Notes: generated by a model from the letters alone, not told the origin. Numbered from the stretch's first letter, positions 1,577-59,789 are shown. The stretch is 64,000 nucleotides of DNA from an uncultured Pseudomonadales bacterium (GCA_964357975.1 CAYHNG010000004.1:6380-70379), one strand, 5' to 3'. Program-made: numbers and translations.

Positions 1577-2164
1577 ATGAAAACCATCACTTTCGTCACT
1601 GGCAATGATACTAAGGTCCGCCATGCCAGAGAAGCCATGAAAGGCTTTGAAATTGAACTAGTTGGCAGAAGACTTGATATCATCGAACCGCGAGAGGAGG
1701 ACCCTGAAAAAGTCGTCCGCGAAAAAGCACTGCAAGCGGCCAAAATAGTTAGCCTGCCATTGATGGTTGAAGACTCCGGTATTTTTATTCAGGCTTTGGG
1801 AGGGTTTCCTAAGACCTTTGTTCACTTTGCCGAAGAAACACTCGGTATTGCCAATATTTTGAAAATGATGGAGGGCGTAAAAAATCGTCATGTTGAATTT
1901 CGTCAGTCTCTTGCCTACTTCGAGCCCGGTATGGCTGAGCCCAAAATTTTTAGTTATATCGACGGAAATTTTACTCTAGCCGATAAAATCTGGGAGCCGG
2001 AATTTGGAGACACCGATGACTTTAATAAAATTCTAATTCCACCCGGAAAAAACAAAGCTCTCAGTACTTTTAGCCTGGAATGGCAGGCCGAAAGAGACAC
2101 TGAAGCAAACAAGGACACCATTCACTATCGGCAATTGGCCAAGTGGTTAGCGTCTAGGCTTTAG
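1577..2164 (+). CDS. Ham1/ITPase-family non-canonical NTP pyrophosphatase
   Basis: N-terminal ITFVTGNDTKVRHA and central LPLMVEDSGIFIQALGGFPKTF match RdgB/Ham1 motifs (ATGN.GK ; DDSGL.VD.LGG.PG). Confidence 0.6.
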   Translation: MKTITFVTGNDTKVRHAREAMKGFEIELVGRRLDIIEPREEDPEKVVREKALQAAKIVSLPLMVEDSGIFIQALGGFPKTFVHFAEETLGIANILKMMEGVKNRHVEFRQSLAYFEPGMAEPKIFSYIDGNFTLADKIWEPEFGDTDDFNKILIPPGKNKALSTFSLEWQAERDTEANKDTIHYRQLAKWLASRL

Positions 2165-50425: not shown

Positions 50426-51067
50426 CTATTTTAGTTTCTTTCCTTTGAACACTGTTCCCCCTACTGCATCTTTAGACCGACTTGTGTCAATAACTCTTCC
50501 ATCTAGATCTGATAAATCATCTTGAACAATTCCATTCTCTTTAAGAAACCGTCTGATTATTCTTCTTGCCTCTTCCCCATACTGTCGACTTTCGTTCGTT
50601 CGGTTATCAAGCAGTATGTATATTATGGTTCCTTGACGGATAAATTTTTCCAACTGGCCAAGTAAATCATCCTCGACAATATTTCTAGGGTTTGGAGCGA
50701 TCATCATGATTAGATCTGCCTTAAACGAGGGAATGACTTCCACCTCACCAGGAACAAGTACTCTTTCTGCACCCATTTCGACTCGACGATCACCTCTTGC
50801 GACCTTCTGGTCAATAAAATATCCAAGTGCGACGTCCGCCCCAATCCACACATCGCCCGATCTTTGATCAACTGATAATCCTGGTGGTCTAAAACCTGGA
50901 CCCACATCCAGCACCCTGAATTTACTTCTTTCAATAATTTCCATAATTTGTGCCTTGCTCGCATCAAAAGTTTTTAGTCTAAAATCCAAAACTCTAGCAG
51001 AGAGCAGAGTGTCTGTTACTCTCTCTTTACCTAAATTGAATTCAGCAACAGCTGGGGATCCGATCAT
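50426..51067 (-). CDS. hypothetical protein, possible SAM-dependent methyltransferase fold
   Basis: FRVLDVGPGF resembles MTase motif I. Otherwise unrecognised. Confidence 0.3.
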   Translation of the reverse strand: MIGSPAVAEFNLGKERVTDTLLSARVLDFRLKTFDASKAQIMEIIERSKFRVLDVGPGFRPPGLSVDQRSGDVWIGADVALGYFIDQKVARGDRRVEMGAERVLVPGEVEVIPSFKADLIMMIAPNPRNIVEDDLLGQLEKFIRQGTIIYILLDNRTNESRQYGEEARRIIRRFLKENGIVQDDLSDLDGRVIDTSRSKDAVGGTVFKGKKLK

Positions 51068-51150
51068 ATCTTCAGATTATAGCGAATATAATAACCACAT
51101 GGACGAAACAAAATTAGTCAGCAATACATGGATCGAAAAAGGGGTGGCCA

Positions 51151-51650
51151 TGAAATTTACTTGGTACCCAGGAGAGAATCTGGAACAGTTTCAGCCATTT
51201 AATCAAGTTTATGGTGTCGTCTTTAATGCAGACGGTCAAATGCTCATTCAAAGAAGGGGGTTAAGACCTTGGTGCCTGGCCGGAGGGACCGTTGAAGTAG
51301 GGGAGACCGCCGAAGAAACTCTCAGGCGCGAACTAATTGAAGAAGCCGATGTTACCGTCAAGAATCCCATTTTGCTCGGCGGGCAAAGAGTGCAATTTCC
51401 CGGCGGGCATAATCCTAATCCCGGCAAACGTGGTGGTGGTGATGATTTCTATCAACTCCGCTATTACTGCGAAGTTGACGAGGTGTTACCTCAAACACCC
51501 GATCCTGATCACGACATCATTAACGATCGCCTCTTTGTTCCCCAAACAGAGATAAATAATTATCTTAACTGGGGCATTACCGGACAAGTTATCTTCGACC
51601 AAGCCATCGCCCTCTGGCTTTCACTTCATCCAGTGCCGCTTGGTGGATAA
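51151..51650 (+). CDS. Nudix hydrolase
   Basis: Nudix box region GGTVEVGETAEETLRRELIEEADV. ATG at 51151 has an AAAGGGG RBS. An alternative start is at 51099. Confidence 0.55.
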
Positions 51651-52176
51651 ACCCGTAGACCTTACCATAATCTCCCCAAGAGAACTTTCCACCCGGGTGT
51701 TCAAAGAAATTATCACTGGCTAATCCAAAATAATTTGCTACGAGCTGACGATATTCGGCTTCGTCCATCCTGACCACATCGGAAACGTCATCTCCCGAAA
51801 TCAATTCCTTCATTCCAAGCGGGAGGTAATAAACAAAAGCCGTATGAGAAAATTTTTCTTCTTTAAAAGCACCCTCAACATTTACCCGAATCAACGGGAC
51901 AAATTTCTCTGCCGGTTCCTTAATACCAAGTTCTTCTTCAGTTTCTCTGATAGCTGCAGAAAGGACATCTTCACCGTCGTTAATTCCGCCACCAATCATT
52001 CTCACAATCCCTTCCGGGTAAAATCCCTTCTTGTCTCCCAAGATAAATTTTCCGGAACCATCTTTTCCCAGAATCAAGACAGTTCTATCCCGATATCGTA
52101 AATTTTCAAAAGGTAAATGAGATAGTTCAACCTTACAATCAATTTCTTTAAACATAATCAAATTATAATATTTCAA
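51589..52176 (-). CDS. Nudix hydrolase
   Basis: GGGINDGEDVLSAAIRETEEELGI matches the Nudix box. 3' end overlaps the convergent Nudix gene. Confidence 0.55.
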   Translation of the reverse strand: MKYYNLIMFKEIDCKVELSHLPFENLRYRDRTVLILGKDGSGKFILGDKKGFYPEGIVRMIGGGINDGEDVLSAAIRETEEELGIKEPAEKFVPLIRVNVEGAFKEEKFSHTAFVYYLPLGMKELISGDDVSDVVRMDEAEYRQLVANYFGLASDNFFEHPGGKFSWGDYGKVYGFIHQAALDEVKARGRWLGRR

Positions 52177-52178
52177 AA

Positions 52179-52748
52179 CTATTTACCGACATCCAACAAT
52201 TTCGTTAATTTCTGATAGTCGGTAATTCCGTTCTCCAAAACTGCTTTATAAATATCCGTACTGGAAACTCGATTCTTGTCGTCTCCTTCCATTTCTCTTA
52301 TTTGCTTAAGTCTCAATATTGCCAGTTTACTTTCAGGCGTCAGACTTTTTGCGTATCGTAAATCTCTCTCTGTTTTATCCTGTGGATATTTATCGACAAA
52401 CCAAATTTCTGTCTCCCATTTCACTCCATTTATTTCCGAGATCAAAACCACAATGAAACCCTTGAGTCGGCCCATTCTTGGAAATTTCACAAAATCCCCA
52501 TACTGATATTTTTGAAACTGCCTCTCTTCAATCAGCATTTTCATGACATTTACGGAGGCATGTCTTGGATCGCCGGTTTCCACTACGATATCGATATCCG
52601 GGCCGTACATCAAATTCAGACTCAAACTACCTATGATCGAGCATTTTCCATATTTTGAAAGCAGGGGAATCAATCCGGAGTCAGCCAGTATCCTATTGGC
52701 AATATCTTTTTGGCTTTCAGAATAATTCAGCAATTCAGCGTCGTTCAT
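52179..52748 (-). CDS. Pol-beta-superfamily nucleotidyltransferase-like protein
   Basis: GSLSLNLMYGPDIDIVVET resembles the G[SG]-x9-13-D.D NTase motif. Confidence 0.4.
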   Translation of the reverse strand: MNDAELLNYSESQKDIANRILADSGLIPLLSKYGKCSIIGSLSLNLMYGPDIDIVVETGDPRHASVNVMKMLIEERQFQKYQYGDFVKFPRMGRLKGFIVVLISEINGVKWETEIWFVDKYPQDKTERDLRYAKSLTPESKLAILRLKQIREMEGDDKNRVSSTDIYKAVLENGITDYQKLTKLLDVGK

Positions 52749-52928
52749 TGTCTCATTTTACTCCAGTGCCAAGCCTACCGCGACCGAAGTAAAAGGGTCA
52801 AACTCGGTTACTTTCTCTTTTCCAGACATTTCAACGATCATTGATCCAAACCCGTCTGCATGATAAATTTGATCCTGACTAATATGCTTAGAAAGTCATC
52901 GTTCAGTGGTAAGACAGGGAACTTACAT

Positions 52929-53510
52929 TTAGATGTTACCGTAGCCCTTGTCACTTTTGAGTGCTCTGATGATTAGGTCCCGTATCAATTCAGATTTTGA
53001 TACACCCAACTCGTTTGATTTCCAGTCTAGGTACCCGTTTTCCAGGTTTTGAAGCACCAGGTTAAATCTTACTTTCTCAGAAAATTTTTTAGCCAGGGTG
53101 TTCTTTAAAATTTTGGCAACATCTTCCTTGGTATTGTAATAATTTACCGAAATTCGACTATCATCAACAAAATTAATCAACTTATTCTTCAAAATCTCCT
53201 TTGCGGACTCTTTGTAGAATATAAAAACAGGCTTGTTTTTTTGTAGAGCCAATGAAATCTGAAACCCAGTACTTAGGCCACCATTGGTCCCCTCAACAAC
53301 CACAATATCTGATCTAAGCAGATCTGAAGAGACAGATTTGTTGATCTTAGAGAAATCTAGAGTCGTCAGCCCCCTATATGCCTCTTTAGCCTCACCAATC
53401 CAGTCCCTTGTCAGGACGTTTCCAGTCTCAATAATGGCATCCTTTACAGCCATAATGTCTGGCATCCTAGCCTCAAAATTGTCTGTGGAGGTGGCAAAAA
53501 ATACTTTCAT
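52929..53510 (-). CDS. fusion of a nucleoside 2-deoxyribosyltransferase-like Rossmann domain with a C-terminal ribbon-helix-helix DNA-binding domain
   Basis: N-terminal MKVFFATS...DIVVVEGTNGGLSTGFQISLALQKNKPVFIFY (NDT-like). C-terminal RFNLVLQNLENGYLDWKSNELGVSKSELIRDLIIRAL has the RHH pattern (beta-strand + ..SRSELIREAI..). Confidence 0.45.
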   Translation of the reverse strand: MKVFFATSTDNFEARMPDIMAVKDAIIETGNVLTRDWIGEAKEAYRGLTTLDFSKINKSVSSDLLRSDIVVVEGTNGGLSTGFQISLALQKNKPVFIFYKESAKEILKNKLINFVDDSRISVNYYNTKEDVAKILKNTLAKKFSEKVRFNLVLQNLENGYLDWKSNELGVSKSELIRDLIIRALKSDKGYGNI

Positions 53511-53587
53511 CGTATTATAGAGTTGCTATTGACAAATTATAACATATAGGTTATCATGCACACGAATGCGCATATTAATTAAAGCTT

Positions 53588-54013
53588 ATGAAAATAACTA
53601 AAAGCTTTTCTTTTGCAATGGGTCATCGTTTACCCCTTCACTCGGGTAAATGTTCCAACTTTCATGGTCATAACTATGACGTGACTATTACTCTCGATTT
53701 TGAAACCGGCCAGAGCTTCATAGAAGGGGTCGGTTTTTTAATAGATTTTGGAGATATAAAAAAGTATGTTGACGAACGTTTTGATCATAAGTTCGTCATG
53801 CAGTCTTCAGATCCGTACTTGAAATCCATCGCACCGCTAGAGATACCCGGCTTGGTAGTGGTAGATTACGCCCCAACCGCCGAAAATTTGGCTACAGATA
53901 TTTCTCAAGGACTAAAACAATATATTTCAACACAAGGATTTAGTTCAAATCAGTTCAAGGTCATAGTCAAACTATGGGAAACCAGTAATTCATTTGTAAC
54001 TCAAATAGCCTAA
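53588..54013 (+). CDS. queD: 6-carboxy-5,6,7,8-tetrahydropterin synthase (QueD/PTPS family)
   Basis: FSFAMGHRLPLHSGKCSNFHGHNYDVTITL is the QueD Cys/His zinc motif. Confidence 0.8.
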   Translation: MKITKSFSFAMGHRLPLHSGKCSNFHGHNYDVTITLDFETGQSFIEGVGFLIDFGDIKKYVDERFDHKFVMQSSDPYLKSIAPLEIPGLVVVDYAPTAENLATDISQGLKQYISTQGFSSNQFKVIVKLWETSNSFVTQIA

Positions 54014-54015
54014 AA

Positions 54016-54825
54016 ATGAAAATTCTTAAGGCGAGCGATATAACCACAAAATACTCCCCGACAAAAGAAGATCTTTCCAATCTAATAAAAAAGGACAACA
54101 CCTTTAAACTCTCTGGTGATCGCATCTTTCACACAATTCAAGGGGAAGGGGCAACACTGGGTAAACCAGCAACTTTTGTCAGACTACACTTCTGTAACTT
54201 ATCATGTTCCTGGTGTGACACCTGGTATACCTGGCACCGGGATACCGAACAGTATTACAAAGAACCTTTTGATATGAGCGTCTCCGAACTTCACCGGGGG
54301 ATTAGAAATGCACAAGCCGCAAAAGGTGTCTCTGAAGAAAATCACGTCTATCGAGTGATTTTTACCGGGGGTGAACCAATGCTTCAGCAAAATGAAATTG
54401 CCCAATTCTTAATCGAGAACCCGGTATACATCTGCGAAATAGAAACCAATGGAACCATAGCCCCAAATGAATTTCTGCAGAAGCTTTGCAAAGAGGACAG
54501 AATACGGTTCAACTGTTCCCCTAAATTGGCGAATTCAGGAAATAATTCAAAAATTGCCTTTAACCAAAACGTTCTGAAAATACTGGCAAGTTTCCCAACA
54601 ACGATATTTAAATTTGTCTGTAATAAACCCAATGACATCGATGAAATTCTGGAAAAATTCAACTTTTTACCTAGAGGGCAAATTGTCATTATGCCAGAGG
54701 GGGTTACAAAAGAAGAAAATGCCGGCGCTTACGAAAGGATTATTAACAAAATAATCGAGCTCAGTTTAACTACTTACCCAAGATTACAAAATATCTGCTT
54801 TGACGGGTCAAAGCGGGGTGTTTAA
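54016..54825 (+). CDS. queE: 7-carboxy-7-deazaguanine synthase (radical SAM)
   Basis: IQGEGATLGKPATFVRLHFCNLSCSWCDTWYTW has the CxxxCxxC cluster motif in QueE context. Confidence 0.8.
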   Translation: MKILKASDITTKYSPTKEDLSNLIKKDNTFKLSGDRIFHTIQGEGATLGKPATFVRLHFCNLSCSWCDTWYTWHRDTEQYYKEPFDMSVSELHRGIRNAQAAKGVSEENHVYRVIFTGGEPMLQQNEIAQFLIENPVYICEIETNGTIAPNEFLQKLCKEDRIRFNCSPKLANSGNNSKIAFNQNVLKILASFPTTIFKFVCNKPNDIDEILEKFNFLPRGQIVIMPEGVTKEENAGAYERIINKIIELSLTTYPRLQNICFDGSKRGV

Positions 54826-54830
54826 AAACA

Positions 54831-55379
54831 ATGACACAATCAAAAATTGAAGATGCGTTTAAAAAGGTCGTCTCGGAATTAAATCCAAATTGGGAAAGTG
54901 ATCCCGATATGAGGGAAACGCCTCACCGACTTGGTCGCTTCTACATGCATTTTTTCCGCAATGAGGATCCAAATGCTCACATGGGGAAACGTTTTCCAAC
55001 AAAAAACAGGAATTTCGTTATTGTCAAAAACATTGAATGTTTCGGTATGTGTCCTCATCATCTAACTCCTGTAATTTACAAAATAAATATTGGTTACCTT
55101 CCCGAAAAATGGGCACTTGGTTTAAGTAAGCTTGCTCGTGTCGCAGTTGCCTGTGCCAGTAGTCCCAAATTGCAAGAAAATCTTACCTCCGATATTGTTG
55201 ATTGTGTCTACAAGCAATTAAAACCAAACGGTGTTATTGCAACAGTAGAAGGTGTTCATGGTTGTATGAGATGTCGCGGCGTTGAACAAGATACATCGGC
55301 CGTAACGGTTGATTACCGAGGTAAAAAAATGAATGATCTTAAGATAAAAAACGAGTTTTATACTTTACTAAAAATATAA
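54831..55379 (+). CDS. folE: GTP cyclohydrolase I
   Basis: FGMCPHHLTPVIYKINIGYLP compares with the FolE CEHHLVPF motif. 182 aa. Confidence 0.85.
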   Translation: MTQSKIEDAFKKVVSELNPNWESDPDMRETPHRLGRFYMHFFRNEDPNAHMGKRFPTKNRNFVIVKNIECFGMCPHHLTPVIYKINIGYLPEKWALGLSKLARVAVACASSPKLQENLTSDIVDCVYKQLKPNGVIATVEGVHGCMRCRGVEQDTSAVTVDYRGKKMNDLKIKNEFYTLLKI

Positions 55380-55864
55380 TGACTCCGATAATTCATAACT
55401 TTAGTTGGCAAGACATCTCCATCCTCTGTCAAAATATATCTAGAAAAATCGAGGCTGACAACTTTCAACCAGACATAATAGTTACTCCTCAAAGAGGAGG
55501 TTTTGTGCCAACGGCTATATTATCCCACCTATTAAGGTGCAGAGAGGTTATTGTCGTCGACATAAAAAGAACGTTGTCGGATGAAATTCATGCTGCCAAG
55601 ACCCCCCCGACCTTGACCAGTGATATCGACACGGAAAGACTTAAGGATAAAAAGATTCTTGTTATCGACGACATTATAGGGAGTGGAGAAACACTCCATT
55701 TTCTATTAAATATATTGGGAAAATGCAAGCCCAAAGCCATTAAGACCTCAATATTGGTCCAGAATGATGAGAATTTTGAAAAATCATTATTAAGAAACAA
55801 TTTGAAGCCTGATTACCTGGGCAAGAACGTTAGGGGTTGGGTAATATTTCCATGGGAGAAATAA
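55379..55864 (+). CDS. Gpt-like (xanthine/guanine-type) phosphoribosyltransferase, candidate 7-deazapurine-base PRTase
   Basis: PRPP loop KILVIDDIIGSGETL. N-terminal ISWQDI...IIVTPQRGGFVPTAILSHLL and C-terminal GWVIFPWEK parallel E. coli Gpt (VTWDML...IIAVSRGGLVPGALLAREL ... TWIEQPWDM). Start overlaps the folE stop. Confidence 0.65.
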   Translation: MTPIIHNFSWQDISILCQNISRKIEADNFQPDIIVTPQRGGFVPTAILSHLLRCREVIVVDIKRTLSDEIHAAKTPPTLTSDIDTERLKDKKILVIDDIIGSGETLHFLLNILGKCKPKAIKTSILVQNDENFEKSLLRNNLKPDYLGKNVRGWVIFPWEK

Positions 55865-56412
55865 ATCTAACCTACAAGACAAAGCCCTTTGTCTTGACCG
55901 GCGGACCGGGAGTCGGGAAGACTATGACGGCAATAGGGCTTGAACTAAAAGGATATTTTGTAATTCCTGAGGTGGCTGAATCATACATAAAGCTGCAACA
56001 ACATCTTGGAGATAAATATCCGTGGGAGGACAAGAATTTTGAAGCCATCGTCCTGAGGTATCAGCTTCAAAAAGAATCCGTATTGAAGGAATTAAGGAAT
56101 GTCGGTCCGGTTTTTATTGATCGCGGTAATTTAGATGCACTTGCATATTATCAATATTATGATCGACCCATCAGTCCTTTAATGAAACAAGTGATTGCTT
56201 GCCACGAAAAAACCAAAATCTATAACAAGATATTCTTGCTAGAACAACTAGGAGGTGAAAAGACTACAGAAATACGAAAAGAAAATAGTTTTGAGTCTAA
56301 GTCTCTCGAATTGCTACAGGAAAAAAACTACCGAGATTTTGGATATGAAGTTATCAGAATACCAGCCCTGCCGTTAGCGGAACGGGTTAAATTAGTTATT
56401 TCGAAAATATAA
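55852..56412 (+). CDS. P-loop nucleoside/nucleotide kinase-like protein
   Basis: Walker A LTGGPGVGKTM and DRGNLDALAY (DR-type motif of NMP/dN kinases). Overlaps the PRTase 3' end. Confidence 0.5.
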   Translation: MGEINLTYKTKPFVLTGGPGVGKTMTAIGLELKGYFVIPEVAESYIKLQQHLGDKYPWEDKNFEAIVLRYQLQKESVLKELRNVGPVFIDRGNLDALAYYQYYDRPISPLMKQVIACHEKTKIYNKIFLLEQLGGEKTTEIRKENSFESKSLELLQEKNYRDFGYEVIRIPALPLAERVKLVISKI

Positions 56413-56419
56413 ACATACA

Positions 56420-57712
56420 GTGAACAATTACAAAAAATTGATCTTTATTGGGGCTGGTCCAGCCTCGTTATTGGCGGGAAACATTCTTTGGAAAAACGGA
56501 TTCCATGATTTCTTAATATTGGAAAAAGGATTGGGTGTACATGAAAGAAATAAATATGACAAAAACGAAAATATCTGTTCCAGTATCAACGGAATTGGCG
56601 GTGCTGGTTTATTCTCGGACGGTAAGTTGAATTTCTCTCCTCAAATCGGCGGTCTACCGCTTAAGATCATGTCTAGTGACAGATATCAAAAATGGTCAGA
56701 AGAGCTAAAAAACCTAATTCCTGCGAAAATTGTCGAAACCGACTTTTCCGGTATTGAAAACTTCAATAAATCGAACAAAGACATAAATTTTTTAGCTATC
56801 GAACAGCGCCATGTCGGTACCGATTATTTACCTGCTATCGTAGATAGGTTAATCGATGGTTTCGAGAAAAATATCCTTACCGACGTAGACGTAACAGATG
56901 TGACAAAAAAAGATTTTGGCTTTGAAATAATTCTAGCTGACGGAAGAACTTTGGAATGTGAAGAACTAGTGGTAGCTACCGGACAAAGAGGTGCGGCTTT
57001 TGCTAAAAAATTGGCTGTAAAAATGGGTGTAAATGTCTCCTCTGTTGTCGCCGATATTGGTGTCCGTCTAGAAACAGAAAAAAATATGTTTAAGGCCTTA
57101 ATCGACTTACAATATGATCCAAAGATTTATTTTAAATTTGGAAATAAGCCTACGGTTAGAACATTCTGTACTAATCCCGGAGGAGACGTTATCGTAGAAA
57201 ATAAAGGAGATTACGTCACAATAAATGGCCATGCAAGTATTACGGATCAGACAGACTTTACAAATACCGCACTCATGTGTCGCATTGAAAATCTCGAAAA
57301 TCCAAAAGAATACACGGAAAAACTCTGTCGTCGCATTTCTAGTGTCACCGGAAACAAGATAGGAGTTCAGGATATTTCTGAACTAATTGACACTAAACCC
57401 TGCAGTTTCAAGATTCGCATACCCTATGTGAAAATGGATATCCGTGAATATTACGATTCCTTAGCATATGAACCAATAGTTGAAACTTTAAAAAAACTCA
57501 ATAAAATTTTGGATAAAAAACTAGAGGGATACATCTATTTCCCCGAAGTAAAACTCTATAACGATCACATAGATATCAAAAAGGATAGTTTAGAAGCTCA
57601 GGGAACAAAAGGACTTTACTTTTTAGGTGATTGTTGCGGTGTTATCCACGGACTTACAAACGCATGCTTAGCCGGTCAATCGTTTGCTCATACTTATTTG
57701 GAAAATATATGA
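56420..57712 (+). CDS. FAD-dependent oxidoreductase (COG2509-like)
   Basis: N-terminal dinucleotide fold LIFIGAGPASLLAGNIL. C-terminal GLYFLGDCCGVIHGLTNACLAGQ. Confidence 0.55.
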   Translation: MNNYKKLIFIGAGPASLLAGNILWKNGFHDFLILEKGLGVHERNKYDKNENICSSINGIGGAGLFSDGKLNFSPQIGGLPLKIMSSDRYQKWSEELKNLIPAKIVETDFSGIENFNKSNKDINFLAIEQRHVGTDYLPAIVDRLIDGFEKNILTDVDVTDVTKKDFGFEIILADGRTLECEELVVATGQRGAAFAKKLAVKMGVNVSSVVADIGVRLETEKNMFKALIDLQYDPKIYFKFGNKPTVRTFCTNPGGDVIVENKGDYVTINGHASITDQTDFTNTALMCRIENLENPKEYTEKLCRRISSVTGNKIGVQDISELIDTKPCSFKIRIPYVKMDIREYYDSLAYEPIVETLKKLNKILDKKLEGYIYFPEVKLYNDHIDIKKDSLEAQGTKGLYFLGDCCGVIHGLTNACLAGQSFAHTYLENI

Positions 57713-58533
57713 AAATCAACTCTGAAAAATCGGAAATGACTTTCAATTTAGAAAGATTGGCAGAAACTTCAAATTCTCTCGTACTTGTCACAGCCGCCAA
57801 TATGTTAATTGAGAATTCAGCTGTTACGATTCAGCCTTCAAAAGAAGTAACTGAAAAACTTCTTTCTCTTTTAGATGCACTCGAGGAAATGCCTGCAATA
57901 AACGCCTTTGCAATTGAAGGGGTCAGAGGTTCTGGTAAAACGACTCAGATCGGTCTTCTCGAAAACGGTGATTTTGCTGTCTCAGGAAGCCGGTTAATAA
58001 CTCCACTATATACAGATTTTATTCAGCCTCAGAAAAAAGACGTGTACATGACGATGTTTGGAGGAGAGGGAAGACCCACCGGAAGCATCATTGACTCACT
58101 AATAATCGCCGCTTTTCACGCTGATCGGTTAACAAGAGTTCAGGCTATCAGTTATAACAAGCCCTTATTGATTGATAGACATTGGCTTTCATTTTATGCC
58201 ATTGAGAGGGCTAAAATGATCCAATCCGGGTTAGATGCTGAAATAGCTGAAAACATTGTCGCCAAAATTGTAACGACTTGGAACCAGGTTAATCTTACCT
58301 TAGTACTTCATAATGTTCTCGTAGCTGTCGGTGAAAATAGAATCATACAACGTGGAGAGGCGGTTCGAAGTGAAAACGAAATACAGATTGAGACTCTAGT
58401 ATCAGAGACGATTGAACTCTTTTGTGGCGGAAAATCCCTCATACCCAAATTTAACAATACCACCAAATTTTTTGATGCCCAAAAATCTGCCGAGGTTTTG
58501 CACGAAGAAATTAAACAGTACTTTATAAAATGA
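57709..58533 (+). CDS. thymidylate-kinase-family (d)NMP kinase with N-terminal extension
   Basis: FAIEGVRGSGKTTQIGLL (Tmk P-loop IEG.DGSGKTTQ) and LLIDRHWLSFYAIE (Tmk DR..S..YQ motif). ATGA overlap with the preceding stop. Confidence 0.55.
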   Translation: MKINSEKSEMTFNLERLAETSNSLVLVTAANMLIENSAVTIQPSKEVTEKLLSLLDALEEMPAINAFAIEGVRGSGKTTQIGLLENGDFAVSGSRLITPLYTDFIQPQKKDVYMTMFGGEGRPTGSIIDSLIIAAFHADRLTRVQAISYNKPLLIDRHWLSFYAIERAKMIQSGLDAEIAENIVAKIVTTWNQVNLTLVLHNVLVAVGENRIIQRGEAVRSENEIQIETLVSETIELFCGGKSLIPKFNNTTKFFDAQKSAEVLHEEIKQYFIK

Positions 58534-59177
58534 AAAAAATAGAACTTGAAATTGACGAACTAAAAAAACGTTGGAACGAACGAGCATCAAGTTGGGATAA
58601 TGACTTAAAAGATCCGGAGCATTATTCAAATTTTGAACATTCTTATGAAAGAACCGATAGATTCACTTTAAAATATTTAAATCAGATATTTTCAATTAAT
58701 AAAGCAAATAATTCTCTCGATTTAGGATGTGGTACGGGAGAAAGTACTGTGAAACTAATACCTTATGCCCACAATATTTTTGGGGTAGATATCTCCGGAA
58801 ATATGATCCTAAATGCTATTTCAAAAAAATATCCCATCGAATTTACCTGTCAAAACGCAATGTCATTAAGCTTCCCAGATCAAATGTTTGATCTGGTAAT
58901 ATCTCGCGGCATCATGATCTCCCATGTACCTCTTGGGGGACAGGAAGATGTTGTTAGGGAAGTTGCCAGAATCACCCATAAGGGATCTGTAATCATCCTT
59001 GACTTTCTTCACGATATCGAAACAAAGAAGAAATATACAAAGTATTCTTCACCAAAAGCGCATTATAATGAAGAATCGATTATTTTACTTCTTAAGAGTG
59101 TGAATATAACGGGTAAATATTATTATGGTGGCACAAAAACCGAACGAGTAAATCGTATAGCAATTATTCGAGATTAA
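58530..59177 (+). CDS. class I SAM-dependent methyltransferase
   Basis: Motif I LDLGCGTGEST, and post-I LVISRGIMISHVP. Start overlaps the preceding stop. Confidence 0.65.
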   Translation: MKKIELEIDELKKRWNERASSWDNDLKDPEHYSNFEHSYERTDRFTLKYLNQIFSINKANNSLDLGCGTGESTVKLIPYAHNIFGVDISGNMILNAISKKYPIEFTCQNAMSLSFPDQMFDLVISRGIMISHVPLGGQEDVVREVARITHKGSVIILDFLHDIETKKKYTKYSSPKAHYNEESIILLLKSVNITGKYYYGGTKTERVNRIAIIRD

Positions 59178-59178
59178 A

Positions 59179-59736
59179 ATGAAACAAATTCACTTCGCTA
59201 CAACTAATGAATATAAAATCAAATTTGCTAACAATCTTTTAAGAACTCATGACTGGGAATGTGTACCAGGAAAAGTAAATTTAATTGAGCCGCAATCAAT
59301 GACACAAGAAGAAATATCCCAATACAAAGTGTTACAGGCATATGAGCAATTAAAAGTTCCTGTAATTACAATGGATTCAGGAATTTTTATTAGTGCTCTA
59401 AAAGGATTCCCAGGCATATACACTGCTGATTTTTTCAAATCTCTGAATAATGACCAGATTCTTCAGCTAATGGAAAAAGAATCTGACCGCAGCGCTTATA
59501 TCCAGCAAACATTATCGATAAATAACGGCGAGGAAATAAAATCTTTCACTAGTAAATCAGAAGGAGTCATTGTTCAATCTACGGAGGCAGGCGAAGGTTA
59601 CGCTTTCGACGCTTTTTTTAAACCAAATATTACAGGTAAGATAATGGCTAAGATGACAGAAGGTGAAAAGAGTTTAATCTGGGGTGAAGCGTGGAACAAA
59701 TTGGGTGATTTCCTAAACAGCTCATCATTACAATAG
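59179..59736 (+). CDS. Ham1/ITPase-family NTP pyrophosphatase (second paralog)
   Basis: IHFATTNEYKIKFA and VITMDSGIFISALKGFPGIYTADF match RdgB motifs. It starts 1 nt after the methyltransferase stop. Confidence 0.6.
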   Translation: MKQIHFATTNEYKIKFANNLLRTHDWECVPGKVNLIEPQSMTQEEISQYKVLQAYEQLKVPVITMDSGIFISALKGFPGIYTADFFKSLNNDQILQLMEKESDRSAYIQQTLSINNGEEIKSFTSKSEGVIVQSTEAGEGYAFDAFFKPNITGKIMAKMTEGEKSLIWGEAWNKLGDFLNSSSLQ

Positions 59737-59789
59737 TTTATTTAAACTCTTCGGGTATTTTAGGGTGATTTGGCGTATAATAAACAGTC

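Follow-up and report, generated by a model that had tools for sequence, protein, structure and literature searches.

The subject of this analysis is a phosphoribosyltransferase (PRTase) of 161 residues encoded at positions 55379..55864 (+) of a 64-kb stretch of DNA from an uncultured bacterium (GCA_964357975.1, CAYHNG010000004.1:6380-70379; the window, below, means this whole stretch), where it forms part of a nine-gene operon that also holds genes for the synthesis of a 7-deazaguanine base. We consider it probable, from sequence comparisons and gene neighbourhoods, that this protein is an active enzyme of the Gpt-2/HGXPRT (hypoxanthine-guanine-xanthine PRTase) family, its purine pocket having been reshaped to accept a 7-substituted 7-deazaguanine, with 7-carboxy-7-deazaguanine (CDG) as its likely substrate. 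The earlier note on this DNA had suggested that the substrate is the 7-deazapurine base, not guanine or xanthine, and this suggestion appears to hold: it draws independent support from the separation of the que-linked PRTases into a clade of their own, from the replacement of two pocket residues by Gly and Asn, from fusions with QueC, and from relatives placed as in the order tubD-tubE-tubF. That a PRTase can act on a 7-deazapurine base is already established with TubE, and the protein is not a new kind of enzyme; what is new is its setting: an island of low guanine-plus-cytosine (GC) content in a bacterium of the candidate phyla radiation (CPR), in which CDG synthesis is coupled to a PRTase, two kinases, a flavin adenine dinucleotide (FAD) enzyme, a methyltransferase, and an extra Ham1.

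The gene and the fold of its product

The PRTase gene starts with an ATG, and its product contains both ILVIDDIIGSGETL and the C-terminal motif WVIFPWEK. The stop codon of the preceding folE gene (TAA, 55377-55379) shares one nucleotide with the PRTase start codon (55379-55381), and the following gene, for a kinase of the AAA_28 family, begins with an ATG at 55852 and hence overlaps the PRTase gene by 13 nt; the reading frame, the two motifs, and both overlaps reported in the earlier note were all recovered from the sequence. The kinase start at 55852 is also the one chosen by gene callers on two other assemblies, and its open reading frame also has an earlier TTG at 55837. An identical PRTase protein occurs on other assemblies, and further homologs follow at 84% identity or less.

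The protein is a type I PRTase of the Gpt-2 kind, matching Pfam Pribosyltran (PF00156) at 68.3 bits (E 6e-19) and remaining below the cut-offs of the equivalog models for xanthine PRTase (NF006613, 40.6 versus 138 bits) and HGPRTase (TIGR01203, 40.9 versus 150 bits): it has a Gpt-2/HGXPRT-type fold without being a genuine Gpt or Hpt. Its best match in the PDB is the HGXPRT of S. solfataricus (4z1o; residues 6-161, 67 bits), and the other closest solved proteins are P. horikoshii 1vdm and SsAPRT 4trb. An end-to-end likeness, drawn in the earlier note with E. coli Gpt, exists rather with the archaeal Gpt-2-type enzymes: BLASTP against E. coli Gpt aligned residues 9-105 only, at 28% identity. An AlphaFold2 model built from 16 homologs has a pLDDT of 92.1 and matches 4z1o/5bqo in Foldseek with template-modelling (TM) scores of 0.80-0.84. 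Conserved in the protein are the acidic pair D97-D98, the 5'-phosphate loop G-S-G-E-T105, the R39-G-G loop, and the stacking Trp154, which is invariant in the alignment of its clade. Fold, length, the motif for phosphoribosyl pyrophosphate (PRPP), and the RGG loop are shared with the archaeal Gpt-2-type enzymes (4z1o/4zfn, 1vdm) and with E. coli Gpt (XGPRT), as is a C-terminal W-x-x-F/x-P-W-E/D motif with the stacking Trp.

A que-linked clade with a probably remodelled purine pocket

To place the PRTase among its relatives, 238 loci were assembled from database homologs and from scans of species-representative genomes, metagenomes, and viral contigs, and were screened with the cluster proteins of the window and of two sibling loci. 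In a neighbour-joining tree, all que-linked bacterial PRTases form one clade, and its sister clade is made up of enzymes from archaea and thermophiles that have no que genes nearby. A phylogeny and an active-site comparison had both been proposed in the earlier note as checks on its idea: the first, in a tree of que-linked bacterial PRTases and of archaeal and thermophile enzymes, cleanly splits the que-linked clade from the housekeeping ones, and the second, made on alignments, finds both residues that would contact N7 and O6 of the purine replaced across the clade.

In the family alignment, the clade, to which the window PRTase belongs, carries an invariant His50 where 42/42 housekeeping relatives have Asp, an invariant Gly101 where 42/42 of them, and E. 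coli Gpt, have Asp, and an invariant Asn129 where 41/42 have Lys; Arg64-Thr65 takes the place of the Phe-Tyr of the housekeeping Gpt-2 enzymes, and Lys74, Asn132, and two short insertions that those enzymes lack complete the set. The HMMER alignment of the window protein to S. solfataricus HGXPRT sets viddiiGsg against vvddvaDtg and ilvqN against alylK. In human HGPRT, Asp137, which contacts or protonates the N7, and Lys165, which gives specificity for 6-oxopurines, touch N7 and O6/N7 of GMP (PMC2228302 Table 2), and G101 and N129 have the motif position and the 28-residue spacing of these two residues. Since a 7-deazapurine has a substituted carbon in the place of N7, we infer that the loss of both contacts fits a pocket for a 7-substituted 7-deazaguanine.

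The signature, abbreviated below to H/G/N, as opposed to the D/D/K of the housekeeping enzymes, is widespread: an exhaustive profile search gave 87 representatives (50%-identity clusters) at E<=1e-30, and 81 of the best 150 family representatives have H/G/N, with Sorangium, Cystobacter, Pseudomonas, and cyanobacteria, free-living organisms with large genomes, among the hosts of the clade. About 16 of the best 150 show another pocket, His50/Asn101/Asp129 (e.g., L180), and others have Ala101; PRTases with such pockets may differ further in their substrates.

Association with 7-deazaguanine genes

In the cellular loci that span 6 kb or more, FolE, QueD, QueE, or QueC is encoded within 10 kb of 54/64 H/G/N-type PRTases and of 0/49 D/D/K-type PRTases (Fisher p = 2e-22, phylogeny ignored), and 8 of the 10 H/G/N loci without any of the four carry other genes of the same cluster type. 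The PRTase is also fused to QueC in two independent cases and in both orders (QueC-PRTase in P0283, PRTase-QueC in P0356), and in a metagenomic protein of 723 residues (P0329) a single polypeptide runs from a SIR2_2 domain, of a kind typical in anti-phage systems, through an AAA_28/AAA_18-like kinase to an H/G/N-type PRTase. One locus, L206, encodes in succession a Nudix protein, a Tmk-like kinase, the PRTase, Ham1, the FAD enzyme, and a D12-class methyltransferase, followed by a protein of the Vut_1/COG1738 (YhhQ) family of preQ0/preQ1 importers, which there replaces folE/queD/queE; an importer in the stead of the de novo genes implies that the same nucleotide module is supplied by uptake.

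These data bear on the most conventional explanation, namely that the protein is an ordinary salvage PRTase for guanine, xanthine, or hypoxanthine, co-transcribed with its neighbours and making GMP that the kinases turn into GTP for FolE in a purine-auxotrophic CPR host. CPR genomes do rely on salvage, the fold and the closest solved structures are those of 6-oxopurine PRTases, and kinases directly follow the PRTase gene; but both N7/O6-contact residues are replaced clade-wide, the scores lie far under the Gpt/Hpt equivalog cut-offs, the clade extends to free-living bacteria whose genomes are large, and none of the 49 true housekeeping relatives is found near que genes, so that we hold this explanation to be very unlikely. 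Its specific corollary, that the enzyme feeds GTP to FolE, was rejected: L206 has the module without FolE, which rules out this role, and the large-genome hosts and the active-site changes speak against it as well.

Comparison with characterized 7-deazapurine systems

The closest functional precedent is TubE of Streptomyces tubercidicus, which joins CDG and PRPP, to a product reported at [M+H]+ 407.06, and rejects 7-deazaguanine, as determined by high-performance liquid chromatography, mass spectrometry, and nuclear magnetic resonance (Liu et al. 2018, PMC6112128). Its authors aligned TubE to 4Z1O (PMC6112128 supplement), the same structure that is the top PDB match of the window PRTase. Like TubE, the window protein is a small type I PRTase related to 4Z1O and is encoded with folE/queD/queE in a cluster without QueC. 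In the cyanobacterium Floridaenema (L028) and the beetle symbiont Ca. Dasytiphilus stammeri (L029), moreover, the gene for a PRTase that has the H/G/N signature and falls in the same neighbour-joining clade as that of the window is flanked by those for a GMP reductase and a UbiD decarboxylase, with QueE/FolE and a phosphatase as neighbours; this arrangement reproduces the order tubD-tubE-tubF. The tubercidin cluster differs from that of the window in that the latter has neither GMP reductase nor UbiD decarboxylase in its operon and no phosphatase inside its island, which indicates that it does not make tubercidin; it has instead two kinases, the FAD enzyme, a methyltransferase, and Ham1, and its host is a CPR bacterium, whereas that of TubE is an actinomycete.

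A second comparison is with ToyH, the proposed preQ0 PRTase of toyocamycin/sangivamycin biosynthesis in S. rimosus, the activity of which is still unverified (PMC12648386). Both are PF00156 PRTases of 7-deazapurine clusters, and sibling clusters of the window's (L001, L003, L241, L242) pair the PRTase with QueC. The toy clusters, however, add GMP reductase, adenylosuccinate synthetase and lyase, and a HAD phosphatase, leading to an adenosine analogue. More generally, the families that are hallmarks of the tub and toy clusters (GMP reductase, UbiD, adenylosuccinate synthetase/lyase, QueC, and phosphatase) are all absent from the nine operon genes. Finally, the FolE-QueD-QueE(-QueC) module for base synthesis is shared with the DpdA/TGT routes (queuosine, archaeosine, Dpd, phage DpdA1-4). 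Those systems swap the free base into a polymer, whereas the system of the window is predicted to activate the base with PRPP to give a free nucleotide; scans of the island and of ten other open reading frames of the window show no TGT-family gene.

The place of QueC and the choice between CDG and preQ0

We favour CDG over preQ0 because a phmmer search of the 64-kb window with the QueC of one sibling cluster (E<=1e-3) detects no QueC. The earlier note had described the PRTase as standing in place of QueC, which is misleading, in that the closest sibling clusters (L001, L003, L241, and L242) hold PRTase and QueC together. L242 is a true sibling of the window's cluster, with the order FolE-QueD-QueE-PRT-AAA_28 (238 bits)-FAD-Tmk-like (243 bits)-Ham1 (284 bits), QueC on the opposite strand, and no methyltransferase; L001, L003, L009, and L159 have FolE-QueD-QueE-PRT-QueC-AAA_17 kinase-pyridoxal phosphate (PLP) decarboxylase-deaminase, plus Ham1 where the contig reaches. 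Judged by these gene orders, the window's variant appears to have lost QueC or never to have had it.

Several observations weigh against our reading and must be set beside it. The nearest relatives of the window PRTase (48-54% identity) sit in QueC-containing clusters, and no residue separates the PRTases of clusters with QueC from those of clusters without it, only conservative, lineage-level differences being seen; preQ0 may consequently be a substrate for the clade, or the nucleotide may be what QueC acts on. Since the contig measures 93.9 kb, of which 64 kb were examined, a QueC gene could also be present beyond the window. The context statistic given above is inflated by kin genomes, among them at least 14 Dasytiphilus isolates, and in a profile search with tubercidin-type PRTases no named Streptomyces TubE occurs in the best 120 of 211 matches. 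Lastly, the catalytic-base Asp of HGPRT-type enzymes is replaced by G101.

The first group of these points would suit a PRTase specific for preQ0, like ToyH, or for another 7-substituted base, with QueC elsewhere in the genome or with the base modified beforehand by the methyltransferase or the FAD enzyme, and such a specificity would also agree with the QueC-PRTase fusions and with L206, in which the module is coupled to an importer of the preQ0/preQ1 type. We nonetheless regard it as unlikely: QueC is found neither in the window nor in the sharply bounded island, the H/G/N signature is shared by many QueC-less clusters of types C and D, and the only assayed precedent, TubE, is CDG-specific (PMC6112128). 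The loss of the catalytic-base Asp, together with the presence of PyrR proteins among the distant PDB matches, could be taken to mean that the protein has the PRTase fold but is non-catalytic, being a PyrR/PurR-like regulator or a nucleotide-binding subunit. This we judge to be highly improbable, given that all elements that bind PRPP/Mg and the 5'-phosphate are invariant, that there is no DNA- or RNA-binding extension, that the gene is translationally coupled within a biosynthetic operon, and that TubE, which the supplement alignment places in the same structural family, is catalytically active (PMC6112128).

The operon and the proposed pathway

The nine genes from queD (53588) to Ham1 (59736) all lie on the (+) strand and are separated by gaps of at most 7 nt or overlap. 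The first, queD (53588..54013), encodes a 6-carboxytetrahydropterin synthase (Pfam PTPS 86.5 bits; TIGR03367 76.9 bits); it is followed by queE (54016..54825), for a radical-SAM 7-carboxy-7-deazaguanine synthase (Radical_SAM 40 bits), the best NCBIfam matches of which are five QueE models, all below their cut-offs, by folE (54831..55379) for GTP cyclohydrolase I (PF01227 144 bits), and by the PRTase gene. Next comes the AAA_28-family P-loop kinase (55852..56412; PF13521 83 bits), a predicted nucleoside/nucleotide kinase with a homolog in the tubercidin-type cluster L028 (134 bits). The FAD-dependent oxidoreductase (56420..57712; Pfam Pyr_redox_3 and FAD-depend_C) belongs to an uncharacterized VP0956/COG2509-like family, and its AlphaFold2 model (pLDDT 92.3) has a sole good Foldseek match, the uncharacterized VP0956 (3nlc, TM 0.80), all other matches having TM scores of 0.52 or less. 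The four close homologs of it that were examined adjoin a PRTase in deazapurine clusters, of the H/G/N type in L241, L242, and L243 and of a related H/G type in L206. VP0956/COG2509-like FAD homologs (107-118 bits) are also encoded ~1-3 kb from D/D/K-type Gpt-2 PRTases in Sulfolobales, Desulfurococcales, and Bathyarchaeia (L063, L070, L072, L079, L194), which hints that a functional link between FAD protein and PRTase may predate the specialization for deazapurines.

The FAD gene overlaps, through ATGA, the gene for a thymidylate-kinase-like nucleoside monophosphate (NMP) kinase (Tmk-like; 57709..58533), which has the P-loop EGVRGSGKTTQ, weak Thymidylate_kin/TIGR00041 matches, and an N-terminal extension of ~65 residues; a weaker homolog in L206 passes Pfam Thymidylate_kin there, and PDB sequence searches with this kinase and with the AAA_28 kinase gave no match. 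A class I S-adenosylmethionine (SAM)-dependent methyltransferase (58530..59177; Methyltransf_25/11 ~60 bits) is without a homolog in the sibling clusters. The last gene encodes a non-canonical purine NTP pyrophosphatase of the Ham1/RdgB type (59179..59736; PF01725 98 bits, PRK14821 129 bits), which recurs in L001, L009, L206, L241, and L242. A second, housekeeping-like Ham1/RdgB at 1577-2164 (+), 34% identical to the island copy, is presumably the housekeeping ITPase.

The best match in the region to a sigma-70-like promoter (TTGACA-17-TATCAT, 11/12; 53529..53557, +), a match to the consensus only, falls in the 77-nt gap 5' of queD, the total number of such sites being not above the shuffled expectation; no convincing intrinsic terminator follows Ham1. 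An Rfam scan of the window returned two tRNAs only and, ahead of the operon, neither a preQ1 riboswitch nor one of another kind, and in PADLOC the operon matches no defence-system model beyond generic similarity to radical-SAM, PRTase, and methyltransferase proteins.

From this inventory we propose a pathway in which FolE, QueD, and QueE would convert GTP to CDG, and in which the PRTase, without QueC, would join CDG to PRPP and yield 7-carboxy-7-deazaguanosine 5'-monophosphate (CDG-ribose-5'-phosphate), which is the reaction of TubE. The translationally coupled AAA_28 kinase and the Tmk-like NMP kinase would act next, at the nucleoside/nucleotide level, the FAD enzyme and the methyltransferase would tailor the product, and the dedicated Ham1 would hydrolyse the triphosphate to the monophosphate, for self-protection or for control of the pool. 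The window's cluster type has kinases and a dedicated Ham1 and lacks both GMP reductase and the adenylosuccinate enzymes by which adenosine analogues are formed, a combination that points to a guanine-type 7-deazapurine at the di- or triphosphate level; from this we infer that the final product is a guanine-type 7-deazapurine nucleotide or nucleoside, and the order of the downstream steps is put forward on the same footing. Kinases of such clusters have also been proposed to be self-resistance genes, as for TubH. As to its role, the product could be a toxin of the nucleoside or nucleotide kind, a nucleotide used in defence, or a substrate of polymerases.

A bolder version of this scheme would make the island and its siblings, that is, clusters of PRTase, kinases, and Ham1, with or without QueC, the FAD enzyme, a deaminase, and a PLP decarboxylase, a transglycosylase-independent route that raises a 7-deazaguanine derivative to the (deoxy)nucleoside triphosphate, (d)NTP, which polymerases would then incorporate into the cell's own RNA or DNA, or which would serve as an antiviral or antagonistic nucleotide analogue like those of viperin. 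We advance this idea as a speculation of low probability.

The island and its host

The operon and a 193-residue gene constitute an accessory island of ~6.9 kb (52833..59749) upstream of uvrA, which is strain-specific and is delimited by sharp edges of homology and by its low GC content (0.37-0.39; flanks, 0.44-0.46). From 59750 on, 14 nt past the Ham1 stop codon, the sequence is again homologous to Ca. Collierbacteria GCA_001774675.1, at 81% identity up to the end of the window; left of the island, the sole match to that genome is a 76-bp relic (52757-52832). At the site of the island, GCA_001774675.1 has a different cassette, of 8.8 kb, and the site ahead of uvrA in Ca. Collierbacteria is one of variable cassettes. 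This other cassette (L244:273-9834) encodes methyltransferases, three Nudix proteins, glycosyltransferases, an NDK-like gene, ScmC, a HAD hydrolase, and HSP70. As to the host, the UvrA of the window clusters at >=90% identity with proteins of Candidatus Collierbacteria (Microgenomates, CPR), and the same cluster occurs in an assembly of 0.1-um-filtered Hainich groundwater (ERZ1292625).

Divergent from the operon, the island also contains the gene for the 193-residue protein (52929..53510, -), which has a weak DNPH1/Rcl-like N-terminal domain and a weak C-terminal ribbon-helix-helix (RHH_1, E 0.015); its 12 PDB matches, over residues 39-128 at E 0.003-0.009, are all of the DNPH1/Rcl family, which has the nucleoside 2-deoxyribosyltransferase fold. 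Tentatively, this protein might be a regulator that senses nucleotides, or an N-glycosidase. Two Nudix hydrolase genes that converge and overlap (50955-51650, +; 51589-52176, -) and a gene for a protein of 189 residues without a significant Pfam match (52179-52748, -) are located a little beyond the island's edge; they may conceivably work together with it, for instance as a TubG-like phosphohydrolase.

Other clusters and phage relatives

Beside the clusters discussed above, the survey brought up several further architectures. In L002 (10001-17519) and ~50 other loci (e.g., L012, L016-L025, L169, L220, L226, L228), a conserved and apparently undescribed cluster comprises the PRTase, a methyltransferase, a thymidylate kinase, a viperin-like radical-SAM enzyme (PADLOC pVip 67.8 bits), a DegT aminotransferase, an RNase T-like exonuclease, QueD, QueE, FolE, and sometimes CYTH; its hosts are Actinoplanes, Streptomyces, Nonomuraea, Ktedonobacteria, Ignavibacteria, Torokbacteria, and Clostridia, and the surroundings of L002 resemble a defence island, with a STAND NTPase and SNF2 and UvrD-like helicases. 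The small chromosomes (0.44-0.60 Mb) of many isolates of Candidatus Dasytiphilus stammeri keep a complete tubercidin-type cluster (L029:5949-12308, L033-L074), with a LytTR regulator, QueE, FolE, GMP reductase, PRTase, UbiD, and an HD phosphohydrolase; its retention in a beetle endosymbiont of ~0.5 Mb suggests a defensive 7-deazapurine nucleoside. The cluster L243 (5621-13174) encodes FolE, a Nudix protein, an MFS transporter, the FAD enzyme, the PRTase, a long QueD-like protein, QueE, UbiD, and a UbiX-like flavoprotein. It resembles the tubercidin clusters, apart from the presence of the FAD enzyme and of an exporter, and no GMP reductase was called in it.

Phages carry a distant group of Gpt-like PRTases, seen in Cellulophaga phage phiST (L239/L240) and in IMG/VR loci (L091-L158). 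The IMG/VR proteins are 21-34% identical to the PRTase of the window, and most have His50 and Asn129 but keep Asp101. FolE, QueD, or QueE is encoded within 10 kb in 31/48 viral loci of at least 6 kb, a co-occurrence that is not yet interpretable, as the viral locus L098 is a mixed block of auxiliary metabolism. In phiST, dG is wholly replaced by 7-deazaguanine, which has been credited to the post-replicative action of DpdA3, for which heterologous tests failed; the phage's PRTase is not mentioned in that work (PMC10516641). This PRTase gene (KC821604.1 50280-50708 = NC_020842.1 CGPG_00045) is followed by a weakly dNMP-kinase-like gene, an unknown gene, and ribonucleotide reductase, and an AAA_18 kinase-like gene and MazG are present among the CDG genes. 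A pre-replicative nucleotide route in phiST is conceivable from this gene content; if the (d)NTP route suggested above were true, PRTase, the dNMP-kinase-like gene, ribonucleotide reductase, and MazG could explain the replacement of dG by deoxy-7-deazaguanosine (dDG) in this phage.

Biological significance

The activation of 7-deazapurine bases with PRPP has so far been known from one assayed enzyme, TubE, in the antibiotic pathways of actinomycetes. Enzymes of this type can now be recognized as a widespread clade with a simple diagnostic signature, the changes from Asp to Gly and from Lys to Asn at the N7/O6 contacts, which could be used to re-annotate proteins currently labelled as hypoxanthine/xanthine PRTases. 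The clade anchors several undescribed cluster architectures, spread over CPR bacteria, actinomycetes, myxobacteria, cyanobacteria, and an insect symbiont, and the CPR variant described here, with its coupling of the PRTase to kinases and an NTP pyrophosphatase, raises the question of whether the function of free 7-deazaguanine nucleotides is that of toxins, of defence molecules, or of polymerase substrates.

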